Assembly (NCBI GenBank): GCA_050955045.1
Contig: JBPBQV010000004.1
Span: forward strand, 13,496 to 77,495
Direction: 5' to 3'
From: Janthinobacterium lividum
GTDB lineage: Bacteria > Bacteroidota > Bacteroidia > Sphingobacteriales > Sphingobacteriaceae
Length of the DNA: 64,000 bases
Below, piece after piece: positions 993 through 27,307 of this stretch. The translations under genes were made by a program, and so were the position numbers. The number at the start of each line of letters is the position of its first letter. Within the stretch, counting starts at the first letter, position 1. Below the pieces are notes generated by a model, which saw nothing but the letters and a program-made list of their open reading frames with translations, was not told where the DNA came from and searched no databases.

Positions 993-1406
993 ATGATTAA
1001 GCCAAAAAGTATTGTTTTTACCTTGTTGATTACGGCCATTGCTGCAATGGGCGCAACAGTGAATATGCAGGAAATAATTCTGCCGAAGCGTAATTTAAAA
1101 GTGTTACCAAAAAATATCAGCAAGGATGATTTAAATAAAGTGATGGACGAATGGAAAGTAGCTTTAGGTGTAAAATGTAATTTTTGCCATGCCGCAACAG
1201 CAGATAATCCGCGAAAAATGGATTGGGCAAGTGATGCCAAACCCGAAAAAGAAATGGCGCGCCAGATGTACACGATGAATGCCAAAATCAACAAAAAGTA
1301 TTTTCATACTAAAAAAGGTGCTGATGGCATGATGGCTATGCAGGCTGTAAACTGCAACACCTGCCATCATGGTGAGGCACATCCGGAAATAAAAGAAGGC
1401 AAATAA
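993..1406 (+). CDS. small secreted c-type cytochrome with two haem-binding sites
   Basis: N-terminal signal/TM segment and two CxxCH motifs (CNFCH, CNTCH). It is followed by a hairpin terminator. Confidence 0.8.
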   Translation: MIKPKSIVFTLLITAIAAMGATVNMQEIILPKRNLKVLPKNISKDDLNKVMDEWKVALGVKCNFCHAATADNPRKMDWASDAKPEKEMARQMYTMNAKINKKYFHTKKGADGMMAMQAVNCNTCHHGEAHPEIKEGK

Positions 1407-1473: not shown

Positions 1474-1491
1474 TAAGAAGATTTTTAAACC

Positions 1492-1570
1492 CGACTTCTT
1501 TACCCAGCCCGTTTCCTGCCATCTTCTACTAAATAAAAATTTTTTAAAACTAGCCAAAATCGACTGGTTT
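1492..1570 (-). pseudogene. decayed, displaced copy of the 3' end of the M23/SH3b peptidase gene (left direct repeat of the KAP islet)
   Basis: Hand alignment with 3173-3254 gives about 64 identities over about 82 columns. It translates as ...ASFKKFLFSRRWQETGWVKK, against ...AGFEGFYLVEDGKETGWVRK* in the intact gene. The stop codon is lost and a 1-nt deletion breaks the frame. Confidence 0.65.
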
Positions 1571-1625
1571 ACTAGCGTAATTTTATTAATGTTTTTTTAT
1601 AGCTACCTTTTGCTTTTAAACCGAT

Positions 1626-3155
1626 ATGACTAAAATTTTAAATAACAAAGAACTTGGCAACTATAAAGAAGAAGATCAATTCAATTTTATAGTCAAAGCT
1701 GATGCAATAAAATATTTTTTAGAGTTTAATACAGAATCTTTAGAAATCAATAAGATGTTGGTTTTATATGGAGATTGGGGAAGCGGTAAAACTTCTTTGA
1801 TGAAGCATATCGAAAAAGAAATTAATAAAAATATCTACAAAACAATTTTCTTTCATGCTTGGGAACATGAAAAAGACGAAAATCTGGCTTTGTCTTTATG
1901 TGATGCTTTGACTGATTGTGTGAAAGACAATACCTCTGAAATTGTAAAAGATTTTATGAAAGCTGCATTGTTAACTTTTAAAAGTTTTGCAAGTGGTATT
2001 ACTTTAAAATCTTCTGCTCTTTTATCAGGTCTTGGATTAGAATTTGAGTTTTCAGGTGAAAAATATATTGAAGCTATTGACAAAGCATTAGAAAGTAAAA
2101 CAGAGCCATCTTTCTTTATTAAAAATTCAAAATTTAAAGAAAAATTTAGAGCAGTAGAAGATTTAATTATAAAGGATTCTGGTGCTCAAAAAATATTAGT
2201 TTTTGTAGATGACTTGGATAGATGTGAACCAGAAAACGTACTAAATTTAATAACTGCTTTAAAGCTATTTTTTACTTATGGTGATAAAACAGTTTTCTTT
2301 AGCGGAATGGATAAAGAAGCTGTTACGAAAGCAGTAAAAACTAAATACAAGGATGTAGTAAAAGCAGAAGAATACTTGGAAAAGGTTTTTGATATTGCCT
2401 TTAACATGCCCAAAACCTTTATTCTAACTAAAATGCTAGAACCACATTTCGACGGAAGTTTTATATCTATTGATAGAAATGTTTTTAAAAATACAGATAT
2501 AATCGAGGATTTATTGCAGACTATTGGATTTACAAATCCTCGCCACATAAAGAAAGTCTTAAGTAAATATGAAATTTTAAAATCATTTAAAGTTCTTCAA
2601 AGTGTACCAAATGATTTCAAAAAAATAATTCCCAACATTCTTGATCTTGATAAGTCAGGAAATATATTTGAAACAATTTATTGTTTATTCTTTATCATTT
2701 TGTATGAGTTCTATCTAAATGAATTTAAAGAAATTGAAGATTATGATGAAAAAATGTCAAGATATATTGAACCAGCGTTAAACTTTTTAAAAGAGACAAA
2801 AGAGGACTACAAATATTCTACTACCATATTATTTATTGATGATCAATACAAAATTGAAGATGTTAAAATTAAATCTATTAAAGAAATATTTACTAAAGTT
2901 AAAAATGAGTCTAATGGTATTAGTAAATTAACTTTCACAAGTTTTTTATTAATATTTGCTCATATGCATCCAAAGTTTTTAGAAGTAGGTTATGGAGTAA
3001 ATGATTCATCGTTTCTAAATTCATTTAATGATAATAATATTCTTAGCTTATTTTGCAAATTTCTTATTAAATATGAAAAGGATATTATGAATCCTGTTAA
3101 TCAAACGGATTATATTTTATGGAACCTTTTTTCGATGGTTAAATATCTGCTTTAA
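1626..3155 (+). CDS. KAP-family P-loop NTPase
   Basis: Walker A LYGDWGSGKTSL, Walker B ILVFVDDLDRCEPENV, and the family-typical TNPRHIKKVLSKYE segment. The DNA is very AT-rich relative to its flanks. Confidence 0.8.
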   Translation: MTKILNNKELGNYKEEDQFNFIVKADAIKYFLEFNTESLEINKMLVLYGDWGSGKTSLMKHIEKEINKNIYKTIFFHAWEHEKDENLALSLCDALTDCVKDNTSEIVKDFMKAALLTFKSFASGITLKSSALLSGLGLEFEFSGEKYIEAIDKALESKTEPSFFIKNSKFKEKFRAVEDLIIKDSGAQKILVFVDDLDRCEPENVLNLITALKLFFTYGDKTVFFSGMDKEAVTKAVKTKYKDVVKAEEYLEKVFDIAFNMPKTFILTKMLEPHFDGSFISIDRNVFKNTDIIEDLLQTIGFTNPRHIKKVLSKYEILKSFKVLQSVPNDFKKIIPNILDLDKSGNIFETIYCLFFIILYEFYLNEFKEIEDYDEKMSRYIEPALNFLKETKEDYKYSTTILFIDDQYKIEDVKIKSIKEIFTKVKNESNGISKLTFTSFLLIFAHMHPKFLEVGYGVNDSSFLNSFNDNNILSLFCKFLIKYEKDIMNPVNQTDYILWNLFSMVKYLL

Positions 3156-3172
3156 TGAATCTTTCTCCTACC

Positions 3173-4492
3173 CTACTTCCTCACCCAACCTGTTTCCTTG
3201 CCATCTTCCACCAAATAAAAACCTTCAAAACCAGCCAATATGTTTACTGGTTTTCCTGCTGTTAAAATCAGCTTTTTAGGTGATAAAGTATCCGGTTGAT
3301 TATACAAAGCTTGTGCTGTTTTTAAGGTATATTTTCTTAATGGCGCACTAACGGCATCAACCGCTTTACTGCTTAAATAACCAGCCTGCCCGTTGGGTAG
3401 CGTTACTTTATAATAATTTCCGGCGGCCGCATCTACATGCAAAGCTGTTCCTTCGGGTAATGCTTCTTTTACCAATGATTTTTCAGTAGGCGAATTGTAT
3501 AATTTGCTGCGGTTATCCGTTCGTACAGTTGCATTCAGGTTCTTTAAAGATGCGGTAATCGGTTCAGGCTTTTTAGTAATTGGCGCAACAAACGTAAGCG
3601 GATTTACTGCGCCGCCATTGGTATAAATACCAAAATGCAAATGTGAAGGCGTAGTGCGCGCATTGCCGGTATTACCAACCAAACCAACTGTATCGCCAAT
3701 CATTACATGCTGACCGTTGTGCACCAACTGCGAATCCAAGTGTGCATAATACAACGTATAATCGGCATCATCCGGACGCAGAAAAACTACTTTTCCGCCT
3801 AACTTATTTTCGCTTGGCTGCACTGTTCCGTTTGCACCAGCCAAAGCTGGTGTTCCTTTTTTGGCGAAAATATCTATGCCTTCGTGTTTACGAATTCCAG
3901 CATCACGATCTACACCATATAAACTGCCAATGTTTGGATTGCCGGATTCTGCCACCGGAAAAGATAATGACGGTCCGGATTGTATCGTTAACGTATATTC
4001 ACCGCTGCGCAATAATTCTGGTTGTAAACGAAGCAAATAAGTTCCGGCCTGTTTTACTTCAACAATTAAAAGTTTTCCGGTGGTATCCGCGGAAGCCAGT
4101 ACGCGGTTTAAATTGCTTTGCTGCCAAACATCCATAAAAACATTGAAATTTTGTGTGGGATTTTTGCTGAGGCTGATGTATAGCTTCTCGCCTCTTTTAC
4201 CTTCAAACTGGAAGGTTGCAGCTTGAATCAGCTCCGCAGCAAAAAAACCGGTTTCTTTATATGGAGTGCTGATTTTTAAAGCTTTACTCAAACTTTGATC
4301 AGCCGTTTGCAGCCACTCGCTGCCCATGGCGGTTTGCTGCAAACCAGCAGTTTTTAAACGTGTTCCATAAGTTTCGTGCGGAGACATTTTTTTGAACAAT
4401 CCGGCCGGGCCAATGCTGTTACACGAAAAAATTACCGATAAAAGAAGCATCGCCAGAAAGCTTCGTGTTTTATATTGAAAAAAAAAGTTCAT
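3173..4492 (-). CDS. M23-family metallopeptidase with C-terminal SH3b-like repeats
   Basis: HEGIDIF...YAHLD...GNTGNARTTPSHLHFGIY motifs, an N-terminal signal peptide, and two SH3b-like C-terminal segments. Confidence 0.85.
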   Translation of the reverse strand: MNFFFQYKTRSFLAMLLLSVIFSCNSIGPAGLFKKMSPHETYGTRLKTAGLQQTAMGSEWLQTADQSLSKALKISTPYKETGFFAAELIQAATFQFEGKRGEKLYISLSKNPTQNFNVFMDVWQQSNLNRVLASADTTGKLLIVEVKQAGTYLLRLQPELLRSGEYTLTIQSGPSLSFPVAESGNPNIGSLYGVDRDAGIRKHEGIDIFAKKGTPALAGANGTVQPSENKLGGKVVFLRPDDADYTLYYAHLDSQLVHNGQHVMIGDTVGLVGNTGNARTTPSHLHFGIYTNGGAVNPLTFVAPITKKPEPITASLKNLNATVRTDNRSKLYNSPTEKSLVKEALPEGTALHVDAAAGNYYKVTLPNGQAGYLSSKAVDAVSAPLRKYTLKTAQALYNQPDTLSPKKLILTAGKPVNILAGFEGFYLVEDGKETGWVRK

Positions 4493-4560
4493 AGTTAAAG
4501 TTTACTGTAGATTTTAACCTTTTTAAGCAGATGAATGTTTGTTTTCAAAGTCGCCGTGTT

Positions 4561-4588
4561 GTCATTTCGAACGAAGAGAGAAATCTTT
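4561..4588. repeat. solo half-copy of the GTCATTTCGA...GAGAAATCT palindromic element family
   Basis: gtcatttcgaacgaagagagaaatcttt matches the left arms at 11011 and 19371. No partner arm was found nearby. Confidence 0.45.
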
Positions 4589-4741
4589 ATCAAACCCTAT
4601 CAAATATTATTTAACATGCAGCAATAAGTTGGATAAAGTTTTGGTAGCAGTCAATCAAGCGTTGACTGCCAGGTTTTGATCTCTGAAAACTATCAGCGCG
4701 TAACTCACAGAGACAATATCACATCAATAAAACTGGAGGTT

Positions 4742-5851
4742 TTAATTATTACCAGTTCCTTGTTTGGCAAGCGTTGTACTTCGTTTATTGCTTAAATATT
4801 TCCTCACGGGAATATCGTAAAGTATCATTACCAAGTAAGCTGCCCCAACCAACAGGATCAGCCCGGCAATGATGATGAAAGCCAGTTGCATTGTCTCCGG
4901 CTTATGGCTGATGTAATAGTTACCAAACATCCATAGTACGGCATAATGCGTCATGTACAATGGATAAGAGATTTTTCCAGAGAATATGCAAACCTTTTTT
5001 AAGCCAGGTGCTAACGTAGCTCCTGCACCTAAAGCGACCAGCAAGGGGAAATAAAACAGTACGATGAAAGGTTCGGATAACCAGTTCCATTTTGAGGATG
5101 GCATAACGAAGGCTAAAAACAATAATATAGCTATACCAATAAATCCCAGCTTGTTTTTAATAATCCAGTTGGAACGGTAGATGAGCAATCCTGCTAAAAA
5201 AGAATACGATATCCGAACGCTCCCGTCCCAAAAAGTTGGGCCGCTCCATCCACCTAATAAATTGCCGGAACGGTAACCTACAAAGCTAATAGCCAATGCC
5301 GAGATTAGTATTAACAGCAACAAGTAGCCACGCCGGGTTCGATAAAGCACCAATGCGTAAACAATATTGGCAACATATTCCCAAAACAACGACCATGCCG
5401 GTGCATTGAAACTGAACAGGTTAAAACCACGGTCGGCTATTACAGGCAATGGAATTAGCAGTATCGAACAAAAAAATGTCAGAATGATTTTACCGGTGCT
5501 GTATAATTCGGGATGACCGCCAAATGGGTCGAACAAAAATGCCAGCAGACCTAATACCGATCCTGCCACAACCAGCGGGTGCAGGCGGATGATCCTTGCT
5601 TTAAAAAACTCCAAAATGCTCATTTTTGCTATACGATCGTCATAAGCATATCCAATCACAAATCCCGAAAGGCAGAAGAAAAAATCGACAGCTAAAAAAC
5701 CGTGTCCGATAAAGTTTTTGCTGGGATCATAAACCCATTCCATAAAATGAAACGTTACAACGGCCAGGGCGGCAATACCCCTTAACCCATCTAAAATTTC
5801 AAAATGCTGTTTTGTTTGCAGCGTTGATAGGGCGATATCGTTCTTGTCCAT
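4742..5851 (-). CDS. acyltransferase family 3 (OafA-like) membrane protein
   Basis: ILDGLRGIAALAVVTFHF N-terminal signature and about 10 predicted TM segments. Confidence 0.8.
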   Translation of the reverse strand: MDKNDIALSTLQTKQHFEILDGLRGIAALAVVTFHFMEWVYDPSKNFIGHGFLAVDFFFCLSGFVIGYAYDDRIAKMSILEFFKARIIRLHPLVVAGSVLGLLAFLFDPFGGHPELYSTGKIILTFFCSILLIPLPVIADRGFNLFSFNAPAWSLFWEYVANIVYALVLYRTRRGYLLLLILISALAISFVGYRSGNLLGGWSGPTFWDGSVRISYSFLAGLLIYRSNWIIKNKLGFIGIAILLFLAFVMPSSKWNWLSEPFIVLFYFPLLVALGAGATLAPGLKKVCIFSGKISYPLYMTHYAVLWMFGNYYISHKPETMQLAFIIIAGLILLVGAAYLVMILYDIPVRKYLSNKRSTTLAKQGTGNN

Positions 5852-6092
5852 TTGGTAAATAAACAGTATTAGCCAATCATAATTAAATATGAGCTTGTCG
5901 AAATAAGTTTAATTTACTTTTTCAATCTGATATTTTAGCATTAAAAGAACGCAATAGCACACAATCCCAAAAAACACTGATAAAAGAAGCATTTTCATCA
6001 GTAAAAATTACACATTGTAATATTCTCTTCACGAAATAAAAATCTTAACCTAAAATTTCTATATTTAAACTCACCGTTAGCTTCAATACGAT

Positions 6093-7727
6093 TTGAAAAG
6101 AAGAGATTTTATTTACCTCAGCAGTTTAAGCCTTGGTGCTGCTGCCTTGCCTAATGTTCCGGCGTTCGGAAAATCTGTTCCCTTAGATGCTGAATATACC
6201 ACAGTTGATGCAGCCATCAAAAAAAAGCTGGCTGATGTAGCTTTAAATGCAGCGCGTTCCAAAGGTGCAACTTATACCGATGTGCGAATTGGTCGCTACC
6301 TCAACCAATCTATTATTACCCGCGAAAACAGAGTGCAGAATATTGCCAATACCGAATCGTACGGAATGGGCATTCGGGTAATTGCAAACGGTTGTTGGGG
6401 TTTTGCTGCAACAGACAAATTGGATAACGACAGCATTGCCAAAACTACAGCACTGGCCGTTGCTATCGCGAAAGAAAACTCCAGATTACTTACGGAACCG
6501 GTGCAACTGGCACCGCAAAAAGGTTATGGAGAAGTGAGCTGGAAAACGCCCATCGAAAAAAATGCTTTTGAAGTGCCCATCAAAGAAAAGGCTGATTTGC
6601 TTCTTTCTGTAAATGCCGCCGCTTTAAAAGCGGGTGCGAGTTTTATCAACAATTCTTTGTTTTTGGTGAATGAGCAGAAATATTTTGCTTCTACAGATGG
6701 TTCTTACATCGATCAGGATATTCATCGTATATGGCCAACTTTTACGGCAACTAAAATTGATGCGAAGTCAGGCAAATTTCAAACCCGGAATTCATTAAGC
6801 GCGCCGATGGGAATGGGTTACGAATATCTGATTCCGAAGGAAGAAGAAAAAATACACGGTGTAATTACGTTATATAAAAAACGGTACGATATGCTGGAAG
6901 ATGCGCAATCAGCCGTAAGAAATCTGGATGAAAAGCTGCTGGCAAAATCCATAGAACCCGGAAAATATGACATAGTTTTAGATCCAACCAACCTTTTCCT
7001 AACTATTCACGAATCTGTGGGTCATCCAACCGAGTTGGATCGTGTTTTAGGTTACGAAGCTAATTTTGCCGGAACAAGTTTTCTGACTTTGGATAAATGG
7101 GAATCTAAAAACTTCAATTTCGGCAGTCCGCAGGTAAATATTGTTGCTGATAAGCTGCAGTCAGGCTCTTTAGGCGCGATGGGATATGATGATGAAGGCG
7201 TAAAAACCAAACAATGGAATTTGATTGATAAAGGCATCTTAGTAAATTATCAAACCATCCGCGATCAGGCACATATTCTGGGCTTGAAAGAATCTCAAGG
7301 TTGTTGTTATGCTGATAGTTGGGACAGCGTGCAGTTTCAGCGTATGCCAAATGTTTCGCTTCAACCAGGAAAATCTCCGTTAAAACCTGCGGATATGATT
7401 AAAGATATTAAAAAAGGCTTGTATATGTTTGGCCGAAATTCTTATTCTATTGATCAGCAACGGTTTAACTTCCAGTTTAGCAGTCAGCTTTGTTACGAAA
7501 TTAAAGATGGCAAAATAACTGGTTTGGTTAACGATGCCGCTTATCAATCCAACACCCGCGAATTTTGGAATTCGTGCGTACAGGTTTGCGACCAGCAAGA
7601 TTACCGTTTTGGAGGCACGTTTAGCGATGGAAAAGGGCAGCCCAGCCAAAGCAGTGCTGTTTCGCATGGTTGCGCTACCACCCGGTTTAATGGTGTAAGT
7701 GTGATTAATACAGCAAGGAAAATATAA
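6093..7727 (+). CDS. TldD/PmbA-family metallopeptidase, TldD-like, Tat signal peptide, TTG start
   Basis: MKRRDFIYLSSLSLGAAALP twin-arginine leader, HESVGHPTELDR metal-binding motif, TTG at 6093. Confidence 0.8.
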   Translation: MKRRDFIYLSSLSLGAAALPNVPAFGKSVPLDAEYTTVDAAIKKKLADVALNAARSKGATYTDVRIGRYLNQSIITRENRVQNIANTESYGMGIRVIANGCWGFAATDKLDNDSIAKTTALAVAIAKENSRLLTEPVQLAPQKGYGEVSWKTPIEKNAFEVPIKEKADLLLSVNAAALKAGASFINNSLFLVNEQKYFASTDGSYIDQDIHRIWPTFTATKIDAKSGKFQTRNSLSAPMGMGYEYLIPKEEEKIHGVITLYKKRYDMLEDAQSAVRNLDEKLLAKSIEPGKYDIVLDPTNLFLTIHESVGHPTELDRVLGYEANFAGTSFLTLDKWESKNFNFGSPQVNIVADKLQSGSLGAMGYDDEGVKTKQWNLIDKGILVNYQTIRDQAHILGLKESQGCCYADSWDSVQFQRMPNVSLQPGKSPLKPADMIKDIKKGLYMFGRNSYSIDQQRFNFQFSSQLCYEIKDGKITGLVNDAAYQSNTREFWNSCVQVCDQQDYRFGGTFSDGKGQPSQSSAVSHGCATTRFNGVSVINTARKI

Positions 7728-7826
7728 GTAGAATTTAGAGGATTTAAGAATAAGGCGAAATGCTTCTTTTATCAACATAAAATCATCCAACTAACAGAAC
7801 AATCATTCATTCTAAAAACCACTATT

Positions 7827-9464
7827 TTGAAAAGAAGAGATTTTGTTTACCTCGCAGGCATGGGCTTTGGTGCTTCCATGCTGTCCAATCTTCCGGCAAT
7901 AGGCAAACCCGTTCCGCTGGATGCGCCGTCAAATTCGGTTGATGTGGCCGCCAAAAAGAAAATGGCTGATATTGCTCTTAACGCAGCCCGTTCTGCTGGC
8001 GCAACTTATACCGATGTTCGGTTGGGCCGCGCGTTAAACCAGTTTGTGGTTACCCGCGAAGACAAGGTGCAGAATATCGTTAACACCGAATCATACGGAA
8101 TGGGTATCCGTGTAATTGCAAACGGCAGCTGGGGATTTGCGGCAACCGATAAACTGGATAACGATAGCATTGCACAAACTGCAAAACTGGCTACTGCTAT
8201 TGCCAAAGAGAATTCCAGATTGCTAACCGAACCTGTACAATTAGCACCACAAAAAGGTTATGGCGAAGTGAGCTGGAAAACGCCCATCGAGAAAAATGCT
8301 TTCGAAATCCCGATCAAAGAGAAAGTTGATTTGCTGCTTGCCGTAAACGCTGCTGCCATGAAAAGTGGTGCCAGCTTTGTGGATTCGCAGTTGTTTCTGG
8401 TAGATGAGCAGAAATACTTTGCTTCTACGGATGGTTCTTACATCGATCAGGATATCCATCGCATCTGGCCAACGTTTACGGTAACTAAAATCGACCCAAA
8501 ATCCGGAAAATTTGAAACCCGGAATTCGCTTGGCGCACCAATGGGAATGGGTTATGAATATTTAATGCCGAGAGAATCCGCTAAAATAAAAGGCGGCCCA
8601 ACTGTACTTTACAAAGAGCGGTACGATATGTTGGAAGATGCACGATTAGCAACGGCACAGGCGGAAGAAAAATTAAAGGCAAAATCTGTAGAAGGCGGAA
8701 AATATGATCTGGTGCTTGATCCGACTAATCTGTATTTAACCATTCACGAATCTTCCGGTCACCCTTCCGAACTGGATCGCGTGCTTGGTTACGAAGCCAA
8801 CTTCGCCGGAACAAGCTTTTTAACGCTGGATAAATGGAAATCTAAAAAATTCAATTACGGTAGCAAACTGGTTAATATCGTTGCAGATAAACTTCAGCCA
8901 GGTTCTTTGGGTCATGTTGGTTACGATGATGAAGGCGTAGCAACCAAAAAATGGGATGTGATTAAAGATGGCGTTTTGGTGAATTACCAATGCACGCGCG
9001 ATCAGGCACATATTTTGGGTTTAAACGAATCGCAGGGTTGTTGTTACTCGGATAGTTGGAGCAACGTGCAGTTTCAACGGATGCCCAATATTTCGCTGGA
9101 ACCCGGAAAAACACCACTTAGTGTTGCCGACCTGATTAAAAATGTAGAAAAAGGAATTTATATTATTGGCGATGGCTCCTACTCTATCGATCAGCAACGG
9201 TACAATTTCCAGTTTAGCGGACAGCTTTTTTACGAAATTAAAAACGGCAAAATTGCAGGTATGCTCAAAGATGTGGCTTATCAATCCAACACACAAGAAT
9301 TCTGGAACTCCTGTTCTGCGATTTGTGATGAACGTGATTATCGTTTAGGCGGAACTTTTTTTGACGGAAAAGGCCAGCCAACCCAAATCAGTTCTGTTTC
9401 GCACGGCGCGGCAACCACGCGTTTTAATGGTGTGAATGTGTTGAATACGGCGCGAAAAATATAA
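7827..9464 (+). CDS. TldD/PmbA-family metallopeptidase, TldD-like tandem paralogue, Tat signal peptide, TTG start
   Basis: MKRRDFVYLAGMGFGASML leader and HESSGHPSELDR motif. It shows high identity to 6093-7727 along its whole length. Confidence 0.8.
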   Translation: MKRRDFVYLAGMGFGASMLSNLPAIGKPVPLDAPSNSVDVAAKKKMADIALNAARSAGATYTDVRLGRALNQFVVTREDKVQNIVNTESYGMGIRVIANGSWGFAATDKLDNDSIAQTAKLATAIAKENSRLLTEPVQLAPQKGYGEVSWKTPIEKNAFEIPIKEKVDLLLAVNAAAMKSGASFVDSQLFLVDEQKYFASTDGSYIDQDIHRIWPTFTVTKIDPKSGKFETRNSLGAPMGMGYEYLMPRESAKIKGGPTVLYKERYDMLEDARLATAQAEEKLKAKSVEGGKYDLVLDPTNLYLTIHESSGHPSELDRVLGYEANFAGTSFLTLDKWKSKKFNYGSKLVNIVADKLQPGSLGHVGYDDEGVATKKWDVIKDGVLVNYQCTRDQAHILGLNESQGCCYSDSWSNVQFQRMPNISLEPGKTPLSVADLIKNVEKGIYIIGDGSYSIDQQRYNFQFSGQLFYEIKNGKIAGMLKDVAYQSNTQEFWNSCSAICDERDYRLGGTFFDGKGQPTQISSVSHGAATTRFNGVNVLNTARKI

Positions 9465-9478
9465 TCAGAATTCGATCA

Positions 9479-9633
9479 GAATTTAGAGAATTTAAGAATA
9501 AGGCAGAATGCTTCTTTTATCAGCCTAAAAACTTAAGCTGTTATTTTTCTTCTGATTTTAGATCGATACAAACACCTATTTTTATTGAATAAAAGAAGCA
9601 TCTTGTTAATTCTCAAATCTCCTAAATTCTGAT
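9479..9633. repeat. element of about 155 nt with imperfect terminal inverted repeats of about 45 nt (MITE-like or long stem-loop)
   Basis: The left arm gaatttagagaatttaagaataaggcagaatgcttcttttatca (9479-9522) is the imperfect reverse complement of 9589-9633. A solo left arm is also present at 7731-7774. Confidence 0.45.
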
Positions 9634-9664
9634 TAAATCAGTGTAATTAATAATTTAAAAAGAA

Positions 9665-10999
9665 ATGCCAATTTTAAATAAAGAACAAGCCCAGGCTTTG
9701 TTAAAAAAAGTGCTCAGCTATTCTAAAGCTGATGAATGTGAAGTAAATTTAAGCGGCTCTGATGGCGGAAACATCCGTTATGCACGCAGTGCGGTTTCTA
9801 CCAGCGGCGGCATCAGTCAAACCAGTTTGGTGGTTTCATCCGCTTTTGGGAAAAAGCTGGGCACTGCAACCATCAACGAATTTGACGATGCTTCGTTGCA
9901 AAAAGTAGTGCAAAGAGCAGAAGAGCTGGCGCAACTGGCACCAGAAAACCCAGAGTTTATGTCTTTTTTAGGGCCTCAAAATTATCCGGAATCTAAAACT
10001 TTTATTCAATCTACGGCTAATATCAACCCAAAACAACGCGCTGATGCGGTGGCAGAAAGCTTGCAGATTGCAAAAAACGGCAATTTAACTGCTGCCGGTT
10101 TTTATGATAATACAGCTGGTTTTTCGGCAATGATGAACTCGAAAGGTTTATTTGCTTATCGCACGGCTACCAACGTTAACTTTAATGTAACGGTAAGAAC
10201 GCCAGACGGAAAAGGTTCCGGTTATGCTTCTAAAGGTTATAATGATGTTACCAAACTGGATGTTGCGACGGCTACTAAAATTGCAGCACAAAAAGCAGCC
10301 GGATCTGCAGCTGCAAAAGCTATCGAACCAGGAAAATATACGGTAATATTAGAACCATCCGCAGCAATTGTTCTCCTCGAAAACCTATTTTTTAATTTTG
10401 ATGCACGTTCTGCGGATGAAGGAAGAAGTTTTATGAGCCTGCCAGGTGGAAAAACAAAACTCGGACAAAAAATGGTTGATGAACGGGTAACTTTTTATTC
10501 TGATCCGCAAAATGTGGATTTGCCAACCAGCACCTGGAGCAGCGACGGTAGGCCGCAAGAAAAAGTTGCCTGGATAGATAAAGGCGTAGTTAAAAACCTG
10601 TATTATTCGCGTTACTGGGCGCAAAAAAAAGGTTTAAAAGCAGTACCGCAACCAAATGGTGTGATTATGGAAGGCGGAACGGCATCGTTGCAAGATTTGA
10701 TTAAAAGTACCGAAAAAGGAATTTTAGTAACACGACTTTGGTACATCCGTTCTGTTGATCCGCAAACTTTATTGCTAACCGGTTTAACCCGCGACGGTAC
10801 TTTTTATATTGAAAACGGACAAATTAAATTCCCGATAAAAAACTTTCGCTTTAATGAAAGTCCAGTTATTATGCTGAATAACCTGGAAACGTTAGGCAAA
10901 CCGGAACGAACCGTGAGCGGAGAATCCGGAATGCACGCCATGATTCCGCCGATGAAGATTCGTGATTTTACATTTTCTTCATTGTCGGATGCTGTGTAA
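9665..10999 (+). CDS. TldD/PmbA-family protein, PmbA(TldE)-like, no signal peptide
   Basis: Typical length and family-wide similarity (EPGKYTVILEP, LWYIR, TRDGTF). There is no N-terminal hydrophobic or RR leader. Confidence 0.75.
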   Translation: MPILNKEQAQALLKKVLSYSKADECEVNLSGSDGGNIRYARSAVSTSGGISQTSLVVSSAFGKKLGTATINEFDDASLQKVVQRAEELAQLAPENPEFMSFLGPQNYPESKTFIQSTANINPKQRADAVAESLQIAKNGNLTAAGFYDNTAGFSAMMNSKGLFAYRTATNVNFNVTVRTPDGKGSGYASKGYNDVTKLDVATATKIAAQKAAGSAAAKAIEPGKYTVILEPSAAIVLLENLFFNFDARSADEGRSFMSLPGGKTKLGQKMVDERVTFYSDPQNVDLPTSTWSSDGRPQEKVAWIDKGVVKNLYYSRYWAQKKGLKAVPQPNGVIMEGGTASLQDLIKSTEKGILVTRLWYIRSVDPQTLLLTGLTRDGTFYIENGQIKFPIKNFRFNESPVIMLNNLETLGKPERTVSGESGMHAMIPPMKIRDFTFSSLSDAV

Positions 11000-11010
11000 T
11001 TAACTTTTTT

Positions 11011-11096
11011 GTCATTTCGACCAACGGGAGAAACCTTCATCAAAGCAGTATAATTGTATTATTTGAGGAAGATTTCTCCCTTCGGATTGAAATGAC
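11011..11096. repeat. palindromic intergenic element (GTCATTTCGA...GAGAAA / TTTCTC...TGAAATGAC arms)
   Basis: Arms 11011-11038 and 11068-11096 are near-perfect reverse complements. The element lies between the convergent PmbA-like and MFS genes. Confidence 0.6.
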
Positions 11097-16200: not shown

Positions 16201-17181
16201 ATGAATATAGCCTTTACTATAGCTACAGCAAATTATTTAGCCGAAGCAAAAACTGTTGGTGATTCTTATTTATTACATAATCCAAATGATACATTTATTA
16301 TTTATTTATTTGATAAAATAAATAATCGTTTTAGTACAGATTACTTTGATCCAATTAAAATTGTTGAAATAGATGTTAATCTCATTCAAGATTTTGAGAC
16401 AAGGGCTGCTAACTATAATATATTTGAATTAACAACGTCTATAAGGCCTTTTGTTGCATTACAAGTATTAGATAATTGTAGTAACATAAGTAAATTTTTT
16501 TATTTGGATTGTGACATCAAAGTATATAATTCGTTTAGTATTGCTGATGATTTACTTAATGAATATGATATATTGATAAGCCCTCATTTTATTTCTCCTA
16601 TTCCTGCAGATGGTTATCTTCTGGACGAAAAGTCTTTTTTTAATAGCGGTTTTTTTAACTCTGGTTTTTTTGCATTTAATAGAAGTCCTGAAGCTATTGC
16701 ATTTTTAGAATGGTGGAATGAAAAATTAAAGACTCAGTGTATAATTGATTTTTGTCAGGGTTTGTTTGCAGATCAAATTTGGTTAAATCTGGTTCCTCAT
16801 TATTTTAAAAAAGTAAAAATAATTAAAGATCTTGGCTATAATGTAGCATATTGGAATTTACATGAAAGATTTTTAACAAATCAAAACAATGAATACTGGA
16901 TTAATGAAAAGTTTCCACTTGTCTTTTTTCATTATAGTGGGTTTAATGTAAATGAAATACAAGTATTATCTAAATTTCAGAATAGATATACATTTGAAAA
17001 TAAAAGTGAAGTTTTGCCATTCTTTACAGATTATAGCAAATCTGTATTAGCTAATAACCATCAAAAATTTTCATTTCTAGAATGTTTTTACCTAAATAAA
17101 ACAAAAATTGAAGTACCACCAGTTAGATTATCTTTTATGACAAGATTAAAGTCTAAAGTCAAAAGCCATTTTTGTATTTAA
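16201..17181 (+). CDS. putative glycosyltransferase (nucleotide-diphospho-sugar transferase fold, DxD)
   Basis: IAFTIATANYL N-terminus, an LDCD (DxD-like) motif and a YWNLHERF segment. The DNA is conspicuously AT-rich. Confidence 0.45.
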   Translation: MNIAFTIATANYLAEAKTVGDSYLLHNPNDTFIIYLFDKINNRFSTDYFDPIKIVEIDVNLIQDFETRAANYNIFELTTSIRPFVALQVLDNCSNISKFFYLDCDIKVYNSFSIADDLLNEYDILISPHFISPIPADGYLLDEKSFFNSGFFNSGFFAFNRSPEAIAFLEWWNEKLKTQCIIDFCQGLFADQIWLNLVPHYFKKVKIIKDLGYNVAYWNLHERFLTNQNNEYWINEKFPLVFFHYSGFNVNEIQVLSKFQNRYTFENKSEVLPFFTDYSKSVLANNHQKFSFLECFYLNKTKIEVPPVRLSFMTRLKSKVKSHFCI

Positions 17182-19370: not shown

Positions 19371-19450
19371 TCATTTTGAACGTAGAGAGAAATCTTCTCT
19401 AAATAATGATTAAACTGTTATAATGAAAATTTCTCTACTGTTCAAAATGA
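19371..19450. repeat. palindromic intergenic element of the same family as 11011-11096
   Basis: Arms tcattttgaacgtagagagaaatcttc (19371-19397) and gaaaatttctctactgttcaaaatga (19425-19450). Confidence 0.6.
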
Positions 19451-26563: not shown

Positions 26564-27307
26564 TTAGATATGTTCAGATGAATCATCAGGAGATATAAAT
26601 GTGCTAATCCCACGTACTGGCGGACAACAAACTTCTTTTTGTTTCCTAACTAATTCTATGTTTTTTTCAATCAAATTGAAAATTTCTTTAGCATCTTGCC
26701 ACAGATCGTTAATACACAATTTTTCTATCAGAAGCTTTTGGAATTTATCTTCTGTTTTGTAAGATTGAAAATACAACTTAGTAATATCAAAATCTTCTTT
26801 ATCTAAACTTGTTCTACTTCCAGAATGTGAGTATCCTCCTTTTCCAAATATTATCTCCCAACTTATATTTTGACTTACATAGTAAAGCTTTAAAAATGGA
26901 TCAACCTGACCAGCAAATACTTGAAGTCTTTCTTCAAAATGTTGAGATGTATTTCTTAAATCAGCTACAGCTTCTTGAAGTGGTGAATTAGGATTATAGT
27001 TAGAAGAATTCAGGATTTTTTGAGGATTTTTAACAAATCCAACTGATTGACCTAATGAAAGTTTAACTGATTTGACTAATCTTGCATAACATTCTATGTA
27101 CGATTCAATATATCCAAAACACTCTTTGTAAAGTTCAAAGCTTACACTTGGTATATCTACATTTATTTTTGTTGAGATTTCAACAATCTTAATATAGGCA
27201 GAATCTATTTTTTCAAGCAGTGAAATGCAGTATTCACAAGTAAGATTAAATAGATCTGAATCTTTAAATGGTAAATATATAAATGGTTTTCTTGAAAAAT
27301 TGAACAT
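26564..27307 (-). CDS. hypothetical protein with an R-x4-H (HEPN-like) motif
   Basis: 247-aa ORF. DLRNTSQHFEE (R118-H123, nt 26939-26956) follows an N-terminal part that looks helical. The DNA is AT-rich. The HEPN assignment rests on this motif alone. Confidence 0.5.
   Translation of the reverse strand: MFNFSRKPFIYLPFKDSDLFNLTCEYCISLLEKIDSAYIKIVEISTKINVDIPSVSFELYKECFGYIESYIECYARLVKSVKLSLGQSVGFVKNPQKILNSSNYNPNSPLQEAVADLRNTSQHFEERLQVFAGQVDPFLKLYYVSQNISWEIIFGKGGYSHSGSRTSLDKEDFDITKLYFQSYKTEDKFQKLLIEKLCINDLWQDAKEIFNLIEKNIELVRKQKEVCCPPVRGISTFISPDDSSEHI

Follow-up and report, generated by a model that had tools for sequence, protein, structure and literature searches.

Single-gene nucleoside triphosphatases (NTPases) of the KAP family block phage in a Walker-B-dependent manner, and their C-terminal regions are uncharacterized (PMC12632615, PMC13552941). 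One of them, EF_KAP, likewise depends on Walker B for defense (PMC12632615, PMC13552941). In a different setting, displaced gene 3' ends, as seen in Rhs C-terminal displacement and in effector-immunity arrays of type VI secretion systems (T6SS), have been attributed to homology-facilitated illegitimate recombination (PMC5361080). Here we analyze a locus in a 64-kb stretch of contig JBPBQV010000004.1 (assembly GCA_050955045.1; hereafter the window), in which a solitary KAP gene lies beside an M23 peptidase gene, between two imperfect direct repeats of the M23 3' end. We propose, at roughly even odds, that the KAP gene occupies a variable spot anchored by the M23 gene, that the left repeat is the scar of a one-sided recombination event, and that the KAP protein is most likely a stand-alone anti-phage NTPase.

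The repeats, of about 80 nucleotides (nt), are real. Local alignment of positions 1400–1650 against 3150–3300 paired 1489–1571 with 3170–3254 at a score of 76; 64 of the ~83 columns are identical, and four small gaps interrupt the alignment. Two controls fell far below this value: 500 mononucleotide shuffles gave a mean of 17.4 and a maximum of 30, and 928 other 251-nt windows of the same sequence, taken from both strands, gave a mean of 18.4 and a maximum of 32. Overall identity between the copies is 77%, and the longest identical run is 9 nt. The right repeat (3170–3254, minus strand) is the working, in-frame end of the M23 gene, a minus-strand open reading frame (ORF) at 3173–4492 that ends ...AGFEGFYLVEDGKETGWVRK before its stop codon. 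The left repeat (1489–1571, minus strand), a decaying copy of the last ~80 nt of that gene, reads ...ASFKKFLFSRRWQETGWVKK, with cta changed to cga at the position of the stop codon and a 1-nt gap that shifts the frame. In the reading of both copies, the changed stop codon and the shifted frame, the locus matches what an earlier reading of the same stretch (hereafter the original prediction) had described.

Comparison with orthologous genes confirms that the left repeat is derived from M23. It aligns with M23 3' ends from nine orthologues, and the homology ends 3–6 nt past the stop codon. Its identity to all orthologous M23 3' ends, the right repeat included, is 70–77%, and that of the right repeat to the orthologous ends is 80–91%, with 72% to locus L007 and 91% to L083, where 56 nt are visible (L-numbers are our labels for relatives' loci). 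These two ranges imply either that the event is old or that the two copies stem from different lineages. The left repeat is most likely the displaced native M23 3' end, persisting as a frameshifted relic without a stop codon.

Between the repeats the KAP gene (1626–3155, plus strand) is the sole ORF, with margins of 54 nt upstream and 14 nt downstream, so that the segment holds neither a recombinase nor a partner gene, as originally predicted. No recombinase was found within ~4 kb to the left (read from L081 and L105) or among the neighboring genes to the right, and the genes next to the repeat-bounded segment are of housekeeping type. Searches around the KAP gene returned no terminal inverted repeats, no subterminal hairpins and no Rfam match. 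A site-specific element should leave an identical core in both repeats; the longest shared run here is the 9 nt given above, although an old core may have decayed. Among the 51 ORFs of the window, a gapped scan found that M23 alone is followed by a second copy of its own 3' end, the tandem TldD paralogues aside. The original prediction had looked to further cassettes flanked by duplicated gene ends, and none turned up in the 64-kb window, whether by gapless repeat families or by the gapped scan, which covered the 3' end of each ORF. What resembled a duplication of the M23 5' region, at 11.0–11.4 kb (repeat families D9 and D12), proved to be a repetitive extragenic palindromic (REP)-like element together with a chance match in a membrane-protein gene.

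The region downstream of M23 is a variable hotspot, filled in part by defense genes and devoid of mobility genes of its own. We examined 80 M23 loci from GTDB species genomes, with the gene end scannable in 75 of them, and added closer M23 homologues. None of the 11 close relatives whose flanks could be read has a cytochrome c gene downstream of M23; other sequence stands there, and at least six different arrangements occur at this position. The gene ndk is convergent with M23 in L001, L003, L004, L007 and L097–L104, and genes for GH1 and a GMC oxidoreductase lie there in L002 and L010. In L008 a four-gene defense islet (7353–11051) encodes an MjaI-type restriction endonuclease (REase), a RiboL-PSP HEPN protein, a GmrSD_N/NsnA-like protein and a type II methyltransferase (MTase), with matches to REase_II (1e-88) and MTase_II (1e-181). 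A truncated MjaI REase (2317–2709) follows M23 in L096, which has the closest M23 relative (89%); L005 carries a helix-turn-helix protein and a DnaJ-domain protein, and L006 a beta-propeller protein. In a distant Mucilaginibacter group M23 is followed by pyrG, across spacers of ~160 nt to 3.7 kb. Turnover also occurs within one species, where loci with an identical M23 protein have swapped the whole M23–ndk spacer, of 74 nt in L097 (6318–6390) and 204 nt in L098 (6318–6520); the two versions part at the M23 stop codon and rejoin at the ndk stop.

This variability bears on what preceded the insertion. The original prediction held that the ancestral junction of a convergent cytochrome c/M23 pair was still readable and looked to relatives for the empty site, and neither expectation was borne out. 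The M23 genes of relatives (79–89% identical) have neither cytochrome c nor a repeat downstream, and the same filled arrangement recurs on each of the three contigs encoding exactly this KAP or M23 protein. The closest homologues of the cytochrome c (80%; L089 and L090) have proB on one side and an EamA transporter gene on the other. A KAP-free junction of cytochrome c and M23 turned up neither among the 80 M23 loci nor in exact-protein look-ups for M23, KAP and cytochrome c, in a metagenome scan with cytochrome c or among the closer M23 homologues; the exact look-up of the cytochrome c protein gave no return, although the gene is called in L081. Because relatives lack cytochrome c beside M23, the cytochrome c/M23 adjacency is private to the window lineage.

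The closest parallel to the window lies in L083, whose KAP homologue, P0003, is 72% identical to the window KAP over its full length (71% in the best local alignment) and sits at the same M23 locus. The order there is GMC, GH1, KAP, a 91-amino-acid (aa) ORF, a spacer of ~80 nt and the M23 3' end at the contig edge. L002 represents the empty site for this insertion, with the same flanks and no KAP gene; a REP-bearing spacer of ~200 nt has been replaced by ~3 kb, and the insertion took the place of one arm of the REP-like hairpin. No flanking repeat is present in L083, where the alignment score of 20 equals that of shuffles. Its junctions differ from those of the window in that the spacer is kept, an extra ORF is present and the sequence upstream of KAP is unrelated. 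The KAP region of L083 spans 6001–8858, and the gene itself is interrupted by a DDE_Tnp_1 insertion sequence (7444–8355).

The extra ORF recurs. The two closest KAP homologues (72–73%; L083 and L091, the latter at 128–1951) are each followed by a conserved ORF of 87–91 aa, 75% identical between the two, for which Pfam, PADLOC and PHROG gave no match. This ORF, possibly a partner gene, has no counterpart in the window, and the window copy may thus lack its partner.

Farther afield, solitary KAP homologues occur between dnaK and rplQ (L086) and at a PepM1-PepM1-DUF2807-KAP locus kept across three Mucilaginibacter genomes (L085, L093 and L095). No flanking repeats surround the homologues in L083, L085 or L086. 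Between L093 and L095 (KAP at 5001–6518) the flanking proteins are 95% identical and the KAP proteins 70%, with the variation concentrated in residues 350–500. Such a pattern, common among defense genes, suggests that alleles were exchanged or that selection favored diversity. These resident copies also correct the meaning of base composition. The AT-richness noted in the original prediction is genuine, with a G+C of 26% in KAP (0.260) against 0.394 in cytochrome c and 0.423 in M23, but it fails as a sign of foreignness. KAP homologues have a G+C of 0.30–0.31 between flanks of 0.40–0.45, even as syntenic residents in three Mucilaginibacter genomes (0.31 against 0.41–0.42 at the DUF2807 locus). 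AT-richness therefore belongs to the family and gives no date for the arrival of the gene.

A second, independent duplication of an M23 end occurs in Mucilaginibacter phyllosphaerae PP-F2FG21 (L014, NZ_SNQG01000006.1). There, the working M23 end at 7174–7308 is repeated at 7528–7657, over ~135 nt and with a score of 170, and the distal copy is frameshifted. The copies bracket only 219 nt of palindrome-rich non-coding DNA and no cargo gene; a further 390 nt, found in no relative examined, precede the conserved pyrG leader. Besides L014, none of the 75 scannable loci among the 80 fetched has a second M23 end. Because the L014 duplication occurs without KAP, duplication is tied to the M23 end and not to the KAP gene.

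We considered how one-sided recombination could generate the window arrangement. The conserved M23 gene would act as a homology anchor for the exchange of downstream genes, and incoming DNA in which a KAP gene lay directly behind an M23 3' end would have recombined with the resident M23. Two routes are conceivable. Linear DNA may have had its far end joined illegitimately ~80 nt upstream of the resident stop codon, in a case of homology-facilitated illegitimate recombination; alternatively, a circular fragment with ~80 nt of M23 homology may have entered by a single Campbell-type crossover. By either route, the incoming 3' end would go into service and the resident 3' end would be displaced to the far side of the cargo, where it would form the left repeat. 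Released from selection, this copy could then have lost its stop codon and reading frame. Clean double crossovers would be traceless, as in the spacer swap between L097 and L098, and one-sided events would leave a scar. Such a scar should consist of a displaced M23 end, in the same orientation and on the far side of the cargo, and this is what the window contains. Moreover, the M23-derived homology of the repeats stops at the stop codon, the point at which the lineages also diverge from one another; the outer limit of the repeat would lie there because the likeness of donor and recipient ends there.

Several points weigh against this scenario. The window's own species yielded neither a donor nor an empty-site genome, which leaves the junctions without an assignment to donor or recipient and the illegitimate joint without a check for microhomology. 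Sliding-window identity of M23 to 11 relatives revealed mosaicism only, with no clean breakpoint within the gene. Homology-facilitated illegitimate recombination more often deletes recipient DNA than duplicates it, and we know of no documented natural competence in these bacteria. The KAP protein has no recognizable effector domain, and its defense function, like the recombination route, is one that we infer. Lastly, the same gene end has been duplicated twice independently, which could instead point to a site-specific process.

One such process would be the integration of a single-gene cassette that carries an attP-like mimic of the M23 3' end, with a recombinase acting in trans and the gene restored upon insertion. 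It would account for repeats that enclose a single gene, at distances of 54 and 14 nt, and that end at the stop codon, as expected of a mimic under selection for an intact protein. Two further observations fit: L014 has independently duplicated this M23 end, and related KAP genes adjoin M23 in two genomes. We nevertheless consider it unlikely. The 9-nt longest run provides no recognizable core, neither flank has yielded a recombinase (~4 kb on the left, from L081 and L105, and the neighboring genes on the right), and the 64-kb window contains no similar cassette. The KAP gene of L083 sits at the same locus without a repeat, its junctions differ and it is accompanied by an extra ORF; elsewhere in the genomes, too, KAP homologues lack repeats, and the L014 duplication lacks a gene. 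The cassette of the original prediction, which was to supply a replacement 3' end, stands in its anatomy (a displaced end, one cargo gene and a working end) and finds no support as a self-contained mobile unit, given the repeat-free KAP genes of L083, the DUF2807 locus and the dnaK–rplQ locus and the cargo-free duplication of L014. On balance, the evidence speaks less for a dedicated cassette mobilized in trans than for a variable hotspot that bears a recombination scar. A related idea, which we regard as quite unlikely, is that the M23 3' end is a recurrent attB-like landing pad in Sphingobacteriaceae for integrase-free mini-cassettes, each carrying a portable 3'-end homology arm. A single crossover would then restore the gene, re-excision through the repeats would be possible, and single defense genes could undergo homology-guided transfer; the window, with its KAP cargo, and M. 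phyllosphaerae, with an empty or decayed cargo, would be two instances.

Larger or older events could also be imagined. Imperfect repeats of 50–100 nt that duplicate a gene 3' end are typical of the att sites of integrative elements, and the divergence of the repeats (77% identity) speaks for an old event, both as expected if the locus were the remnant of a larger, integrase-bearing element for which the M23 3' end served as attB and of which later deletions spared only KAP. Against this history, one intact ORF fills the repeat-bounded segment to within 54 and 14 nt, with no pseudogene debris visible. Nor does any of ~100 M23 loci have an M23-end repeat pair around a larger island, although integrases were not searched for systematically there, and we hold this history to be very unlikely. 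Equally improbable in our view is a reversed order of events, in which the M23 3' end was first duplicated locally by replication slippage or template switching and the KAP gene was inserted between the copies later. In its favor, L014 shows that a duplicated M23 end can exist with no more than 219 nt of palindrome-rich, non-coding sequence separating the copies. The DNA between those copies is, however, foreign to its relatives, so that L014 also represents an insertion. This order further needs two independent events within the same few hundred bases. Moreover, the left copy resembles some orthologues, L008 and L083 among them, as closely as it does the right copy (77%), which speaks against an origin by duplication within the genome.

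What kind of protein does the scenario of one-sided recombination deliver? Profile search assigns the 509-aa product to the KAP family, as predicted: Pfam PF07693 matches residues 44–318 over profile positions 22–289 of 293, with E = 3.7e-27 and 95.8 bits against a cutoff of 20. The three expected motifs are present, Walker A (GDWGSGKTS), Walker B (VFVDDLDRCEP) and TNPRHIKK, and across 45 KAP homologues G49, G52, G54, K55, D195, D196, D198, R199 and C200 are invariant. An AlphaFold model (pLDDT 83.5) divides the protein into an NTPase domain (residues ~1–320) and a variable, all-helical C-terminal domain (~330–509), and residues 350–500 are the least conserved part among homologues. Transmembrane helices within the NTPase domain are common in prokaryotic KAP members, though not universal. 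In classical KAP proteins they occupy the site of the insert at residues 123–158, which in the window protein is non-hydrophobic and, with a pLDDT below 50, predicted to be disordered. Kyte-Doolittle hydropathy averaged over 19 residues peaks at 1.47, within the C-terminal domain (residues 346–365), and we found no transmembrane insert.

Matches to defense profiles make an anti-phage role plausible, as the original prediction had suggested. Of the PADLOC profiles for the candidate system PDC-S20, which come without a curated cutoff, the best gives E = 1.6e-24 (residues 43–396 over positions 41–382 of 464). The PifA model scores E = 5.2e-20 with residues 46–313 against positions 44–311 of 720, and with only 268 of the 720 profile positions aligned we reject orthology to PifA. 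The QatA profile of PADLOC matches the NTPase domain as well. Membership in a Qat system (QatABCD) is rejected, as the NCBIfam QatA score is 73.9 bits against a cutoff of 600 and the neighbors are cytochrome c and M23. Among solved structures, the best fold match in the PDB is RdrA of RADAR (E = 1.6e-6, TM 0.41, ~12% identity); the resemblance is one of fold only, and no RdrB or second gene adjoins. A sequence search returned no solved structure of a KAP relative. Together with the validated stand-alone KAP proteins described above, the RdrA-like fold and the divergence of KAP between conserved flanks at the DUF2807 locus, these profile matches indicate that the window protein is most likely a stand-alone anti-phage NTPase. 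It could operate as an NTP-driven switch, with the variable C-terminal domain either sensing a phage component or carrying the effector activity. A search of 2.9 million viral contigs for this KAP subfamily returned one weak match, at 38% identity. That contig, L106 (IMGVR_UViG_2822923858_000002), matches over residues 1–362 at positions 5001–6056.

The remaining features of the locus complete its map. To the left, a small c-type cytochrome gene (993–1406, plus strand; 137 aa; Pfam CytoC_RC, E = 2e-9) is followed by a stable hairpin flanked by A- and U-runs (1435–1466), ~25 nt from the left repeat. With a folding energy of −16.8 kcal/mol (z = −4.4, none of 200 shuffles as stable) the hairpin is stable, and it looks like a bidirectional intrinsic terminator. 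The adjoining fragment TTTTGCTTTTGTAAGAAGATTTTT (1463–1486) resembles part of a REP-like palindromic element of these genomes, namely its loop together with the right arm, and matches the spacers downstream of M23 in L002, L010 and L083 (p ~0.001). The match does not establish that the left repeat retains its native M23 flank, because the same dispersed element, besides lying in the L002, L010 and L083 spacers, follows cytochrome c in L089 and L090; since it is dispersed, it cannot show which gene the fragment originally followed. This REP-like element (TGTCATTTCGACCnAnGGGAGAAATC...) stands at many intergenic junctions, in the window at 4559–4594, 11009–11044 and 19371–19394, and it can appear as a spurious ORF (HFDRREKS).

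Between left repeat and KAP gene, an AT-rich leader of 54 nt (1572–1625, plus strand) presumably holds the promoter and is not homologous to the KAP upstream region of L083. The 14-nt junction from the KAP stop to the right repeat (3156–3169) has no structure (0 kcal/mol) and no terminator between the convergent genes. KAP and M23 have 17 nt between their stop codons (3156–3172), with no hairpin, and their transcripts presumably each read antisense into the other gene. The M23 peptidase itself (439 aa, minus strand; Pfam Peptidase_M23, 1.6e-23) carries C-terminal SH3b domains (SH3_3, 1.4e-9).

Beyond M23, an acyltransferase-3 gene (4742–5851, minus strand; Acyl_transf_3, PF01757) lies between M23 and TldD and is absent at the same position in relatives. 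There, TldD or a small DMT_6 gene stands directly beside M23 without the acyltransferase, which makes the locus variable upstream of M23 as well. Two tandem TldD paralogues (6093–7727 and 7827–9464; 75–82% nucleotide identity in long blocks) are followed by PmbA (9665–10999), and this block is not beside M23 in L002, L007 or L008. Two more low-G+C stretches (~0.29–0.30), at 16201–17181 and 26564–27307, coincide with ORFs of 326 and 247 aa without a Pfam match. The window is identical to contig JBPBPF010000041.1 of GCA_050921655.1. Every homologue and syntenic relative belongs to Sphingobacteriaceae or Mucilaginibacter, and the assembly label 'MAG: Janthinobacterium lividum' looks wrong.

If the scenario of one-sided recombination is correct, the locus illustrates how a single defense gene enters a chromosome without mobile-element machinery, with a conserved housekeeping gene as the anchor of recombination. 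The displaced gene end would then be a datable scar. A systematic search for such scars could chart recombination-driven gene flux in Bacteroidota, a group whose defense hotspots have been little studied. The hypervariable C-terminal domain of the KAP protein is a candidate sensor. Current views are not overturned, and the value of the locus is that of an example rather than a new principle. What is new is that this KAP protein adds a soluble, transmembrane-free Sphingobacteriaceae clade to the known class of stand-alone KAP defense NTPases.

Set beside described systems, the protein is closest to the stand-alone KAP anti-phage proteins, namely EF_KAP and its metagenomic relatives (PMC12632615, PMC13552941), and to PifA of the F plasmid. 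All are single genes with a KAP NTPase domain bearing Walker A and B motifs, and all share with the window KAP a C-terminal region of ~180–320 aa without a known domain. The window KAP differs in that it has no N-terminal or inserted transmembrane helices and is not linked to a serine recombinase; its likeness to PifA is limited to the NTPase domain, and its role is a predicted one. RdrA, the ring-forming ATPase of RADAR, is larger, at ~800–850 aa, and works with the deaminase RdrB, whereas the window KAP stands without a partner gene and the TM-score is modest.

As a genomic site, the region downstream of M23 recalls the core defense hotspots (cDHS) of Pseudomonas aeruginosa (PMC10250203), in which varied defense and accessory genes likewise occupy a fixed spot by a conserved gene without an integrase; as there, relatives begin to diverge directly where the conserved gene ends. 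It differs in being conserved at the M23 flank only, with a far flank that varies among ndk, GH1/GMC and cytochrome c. Many of its occupants are not defense genes, and its islets are very small, of one to four genes. The repeats themselves resemble those of integrative elements that target gene 3' ends and carry a copy of that end in attP, where imperfect direct repeats of a 3' end also surround foreign, AT-rich DNA. In contrast to such elements, the window has no integrase or identical core and a single cargo gene, and its repeats do not recur around related cargo. In the Rhs and T6SS arrays, as proposed here, anchored incoming DNA supplies a new 3' end and orphans the old one downstream in the same orientation. 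There, however, the new 3' end is a different toxin domain, whereas in the window the replacement would be the same C-terminus and the payload an unrelated, convergent gene.

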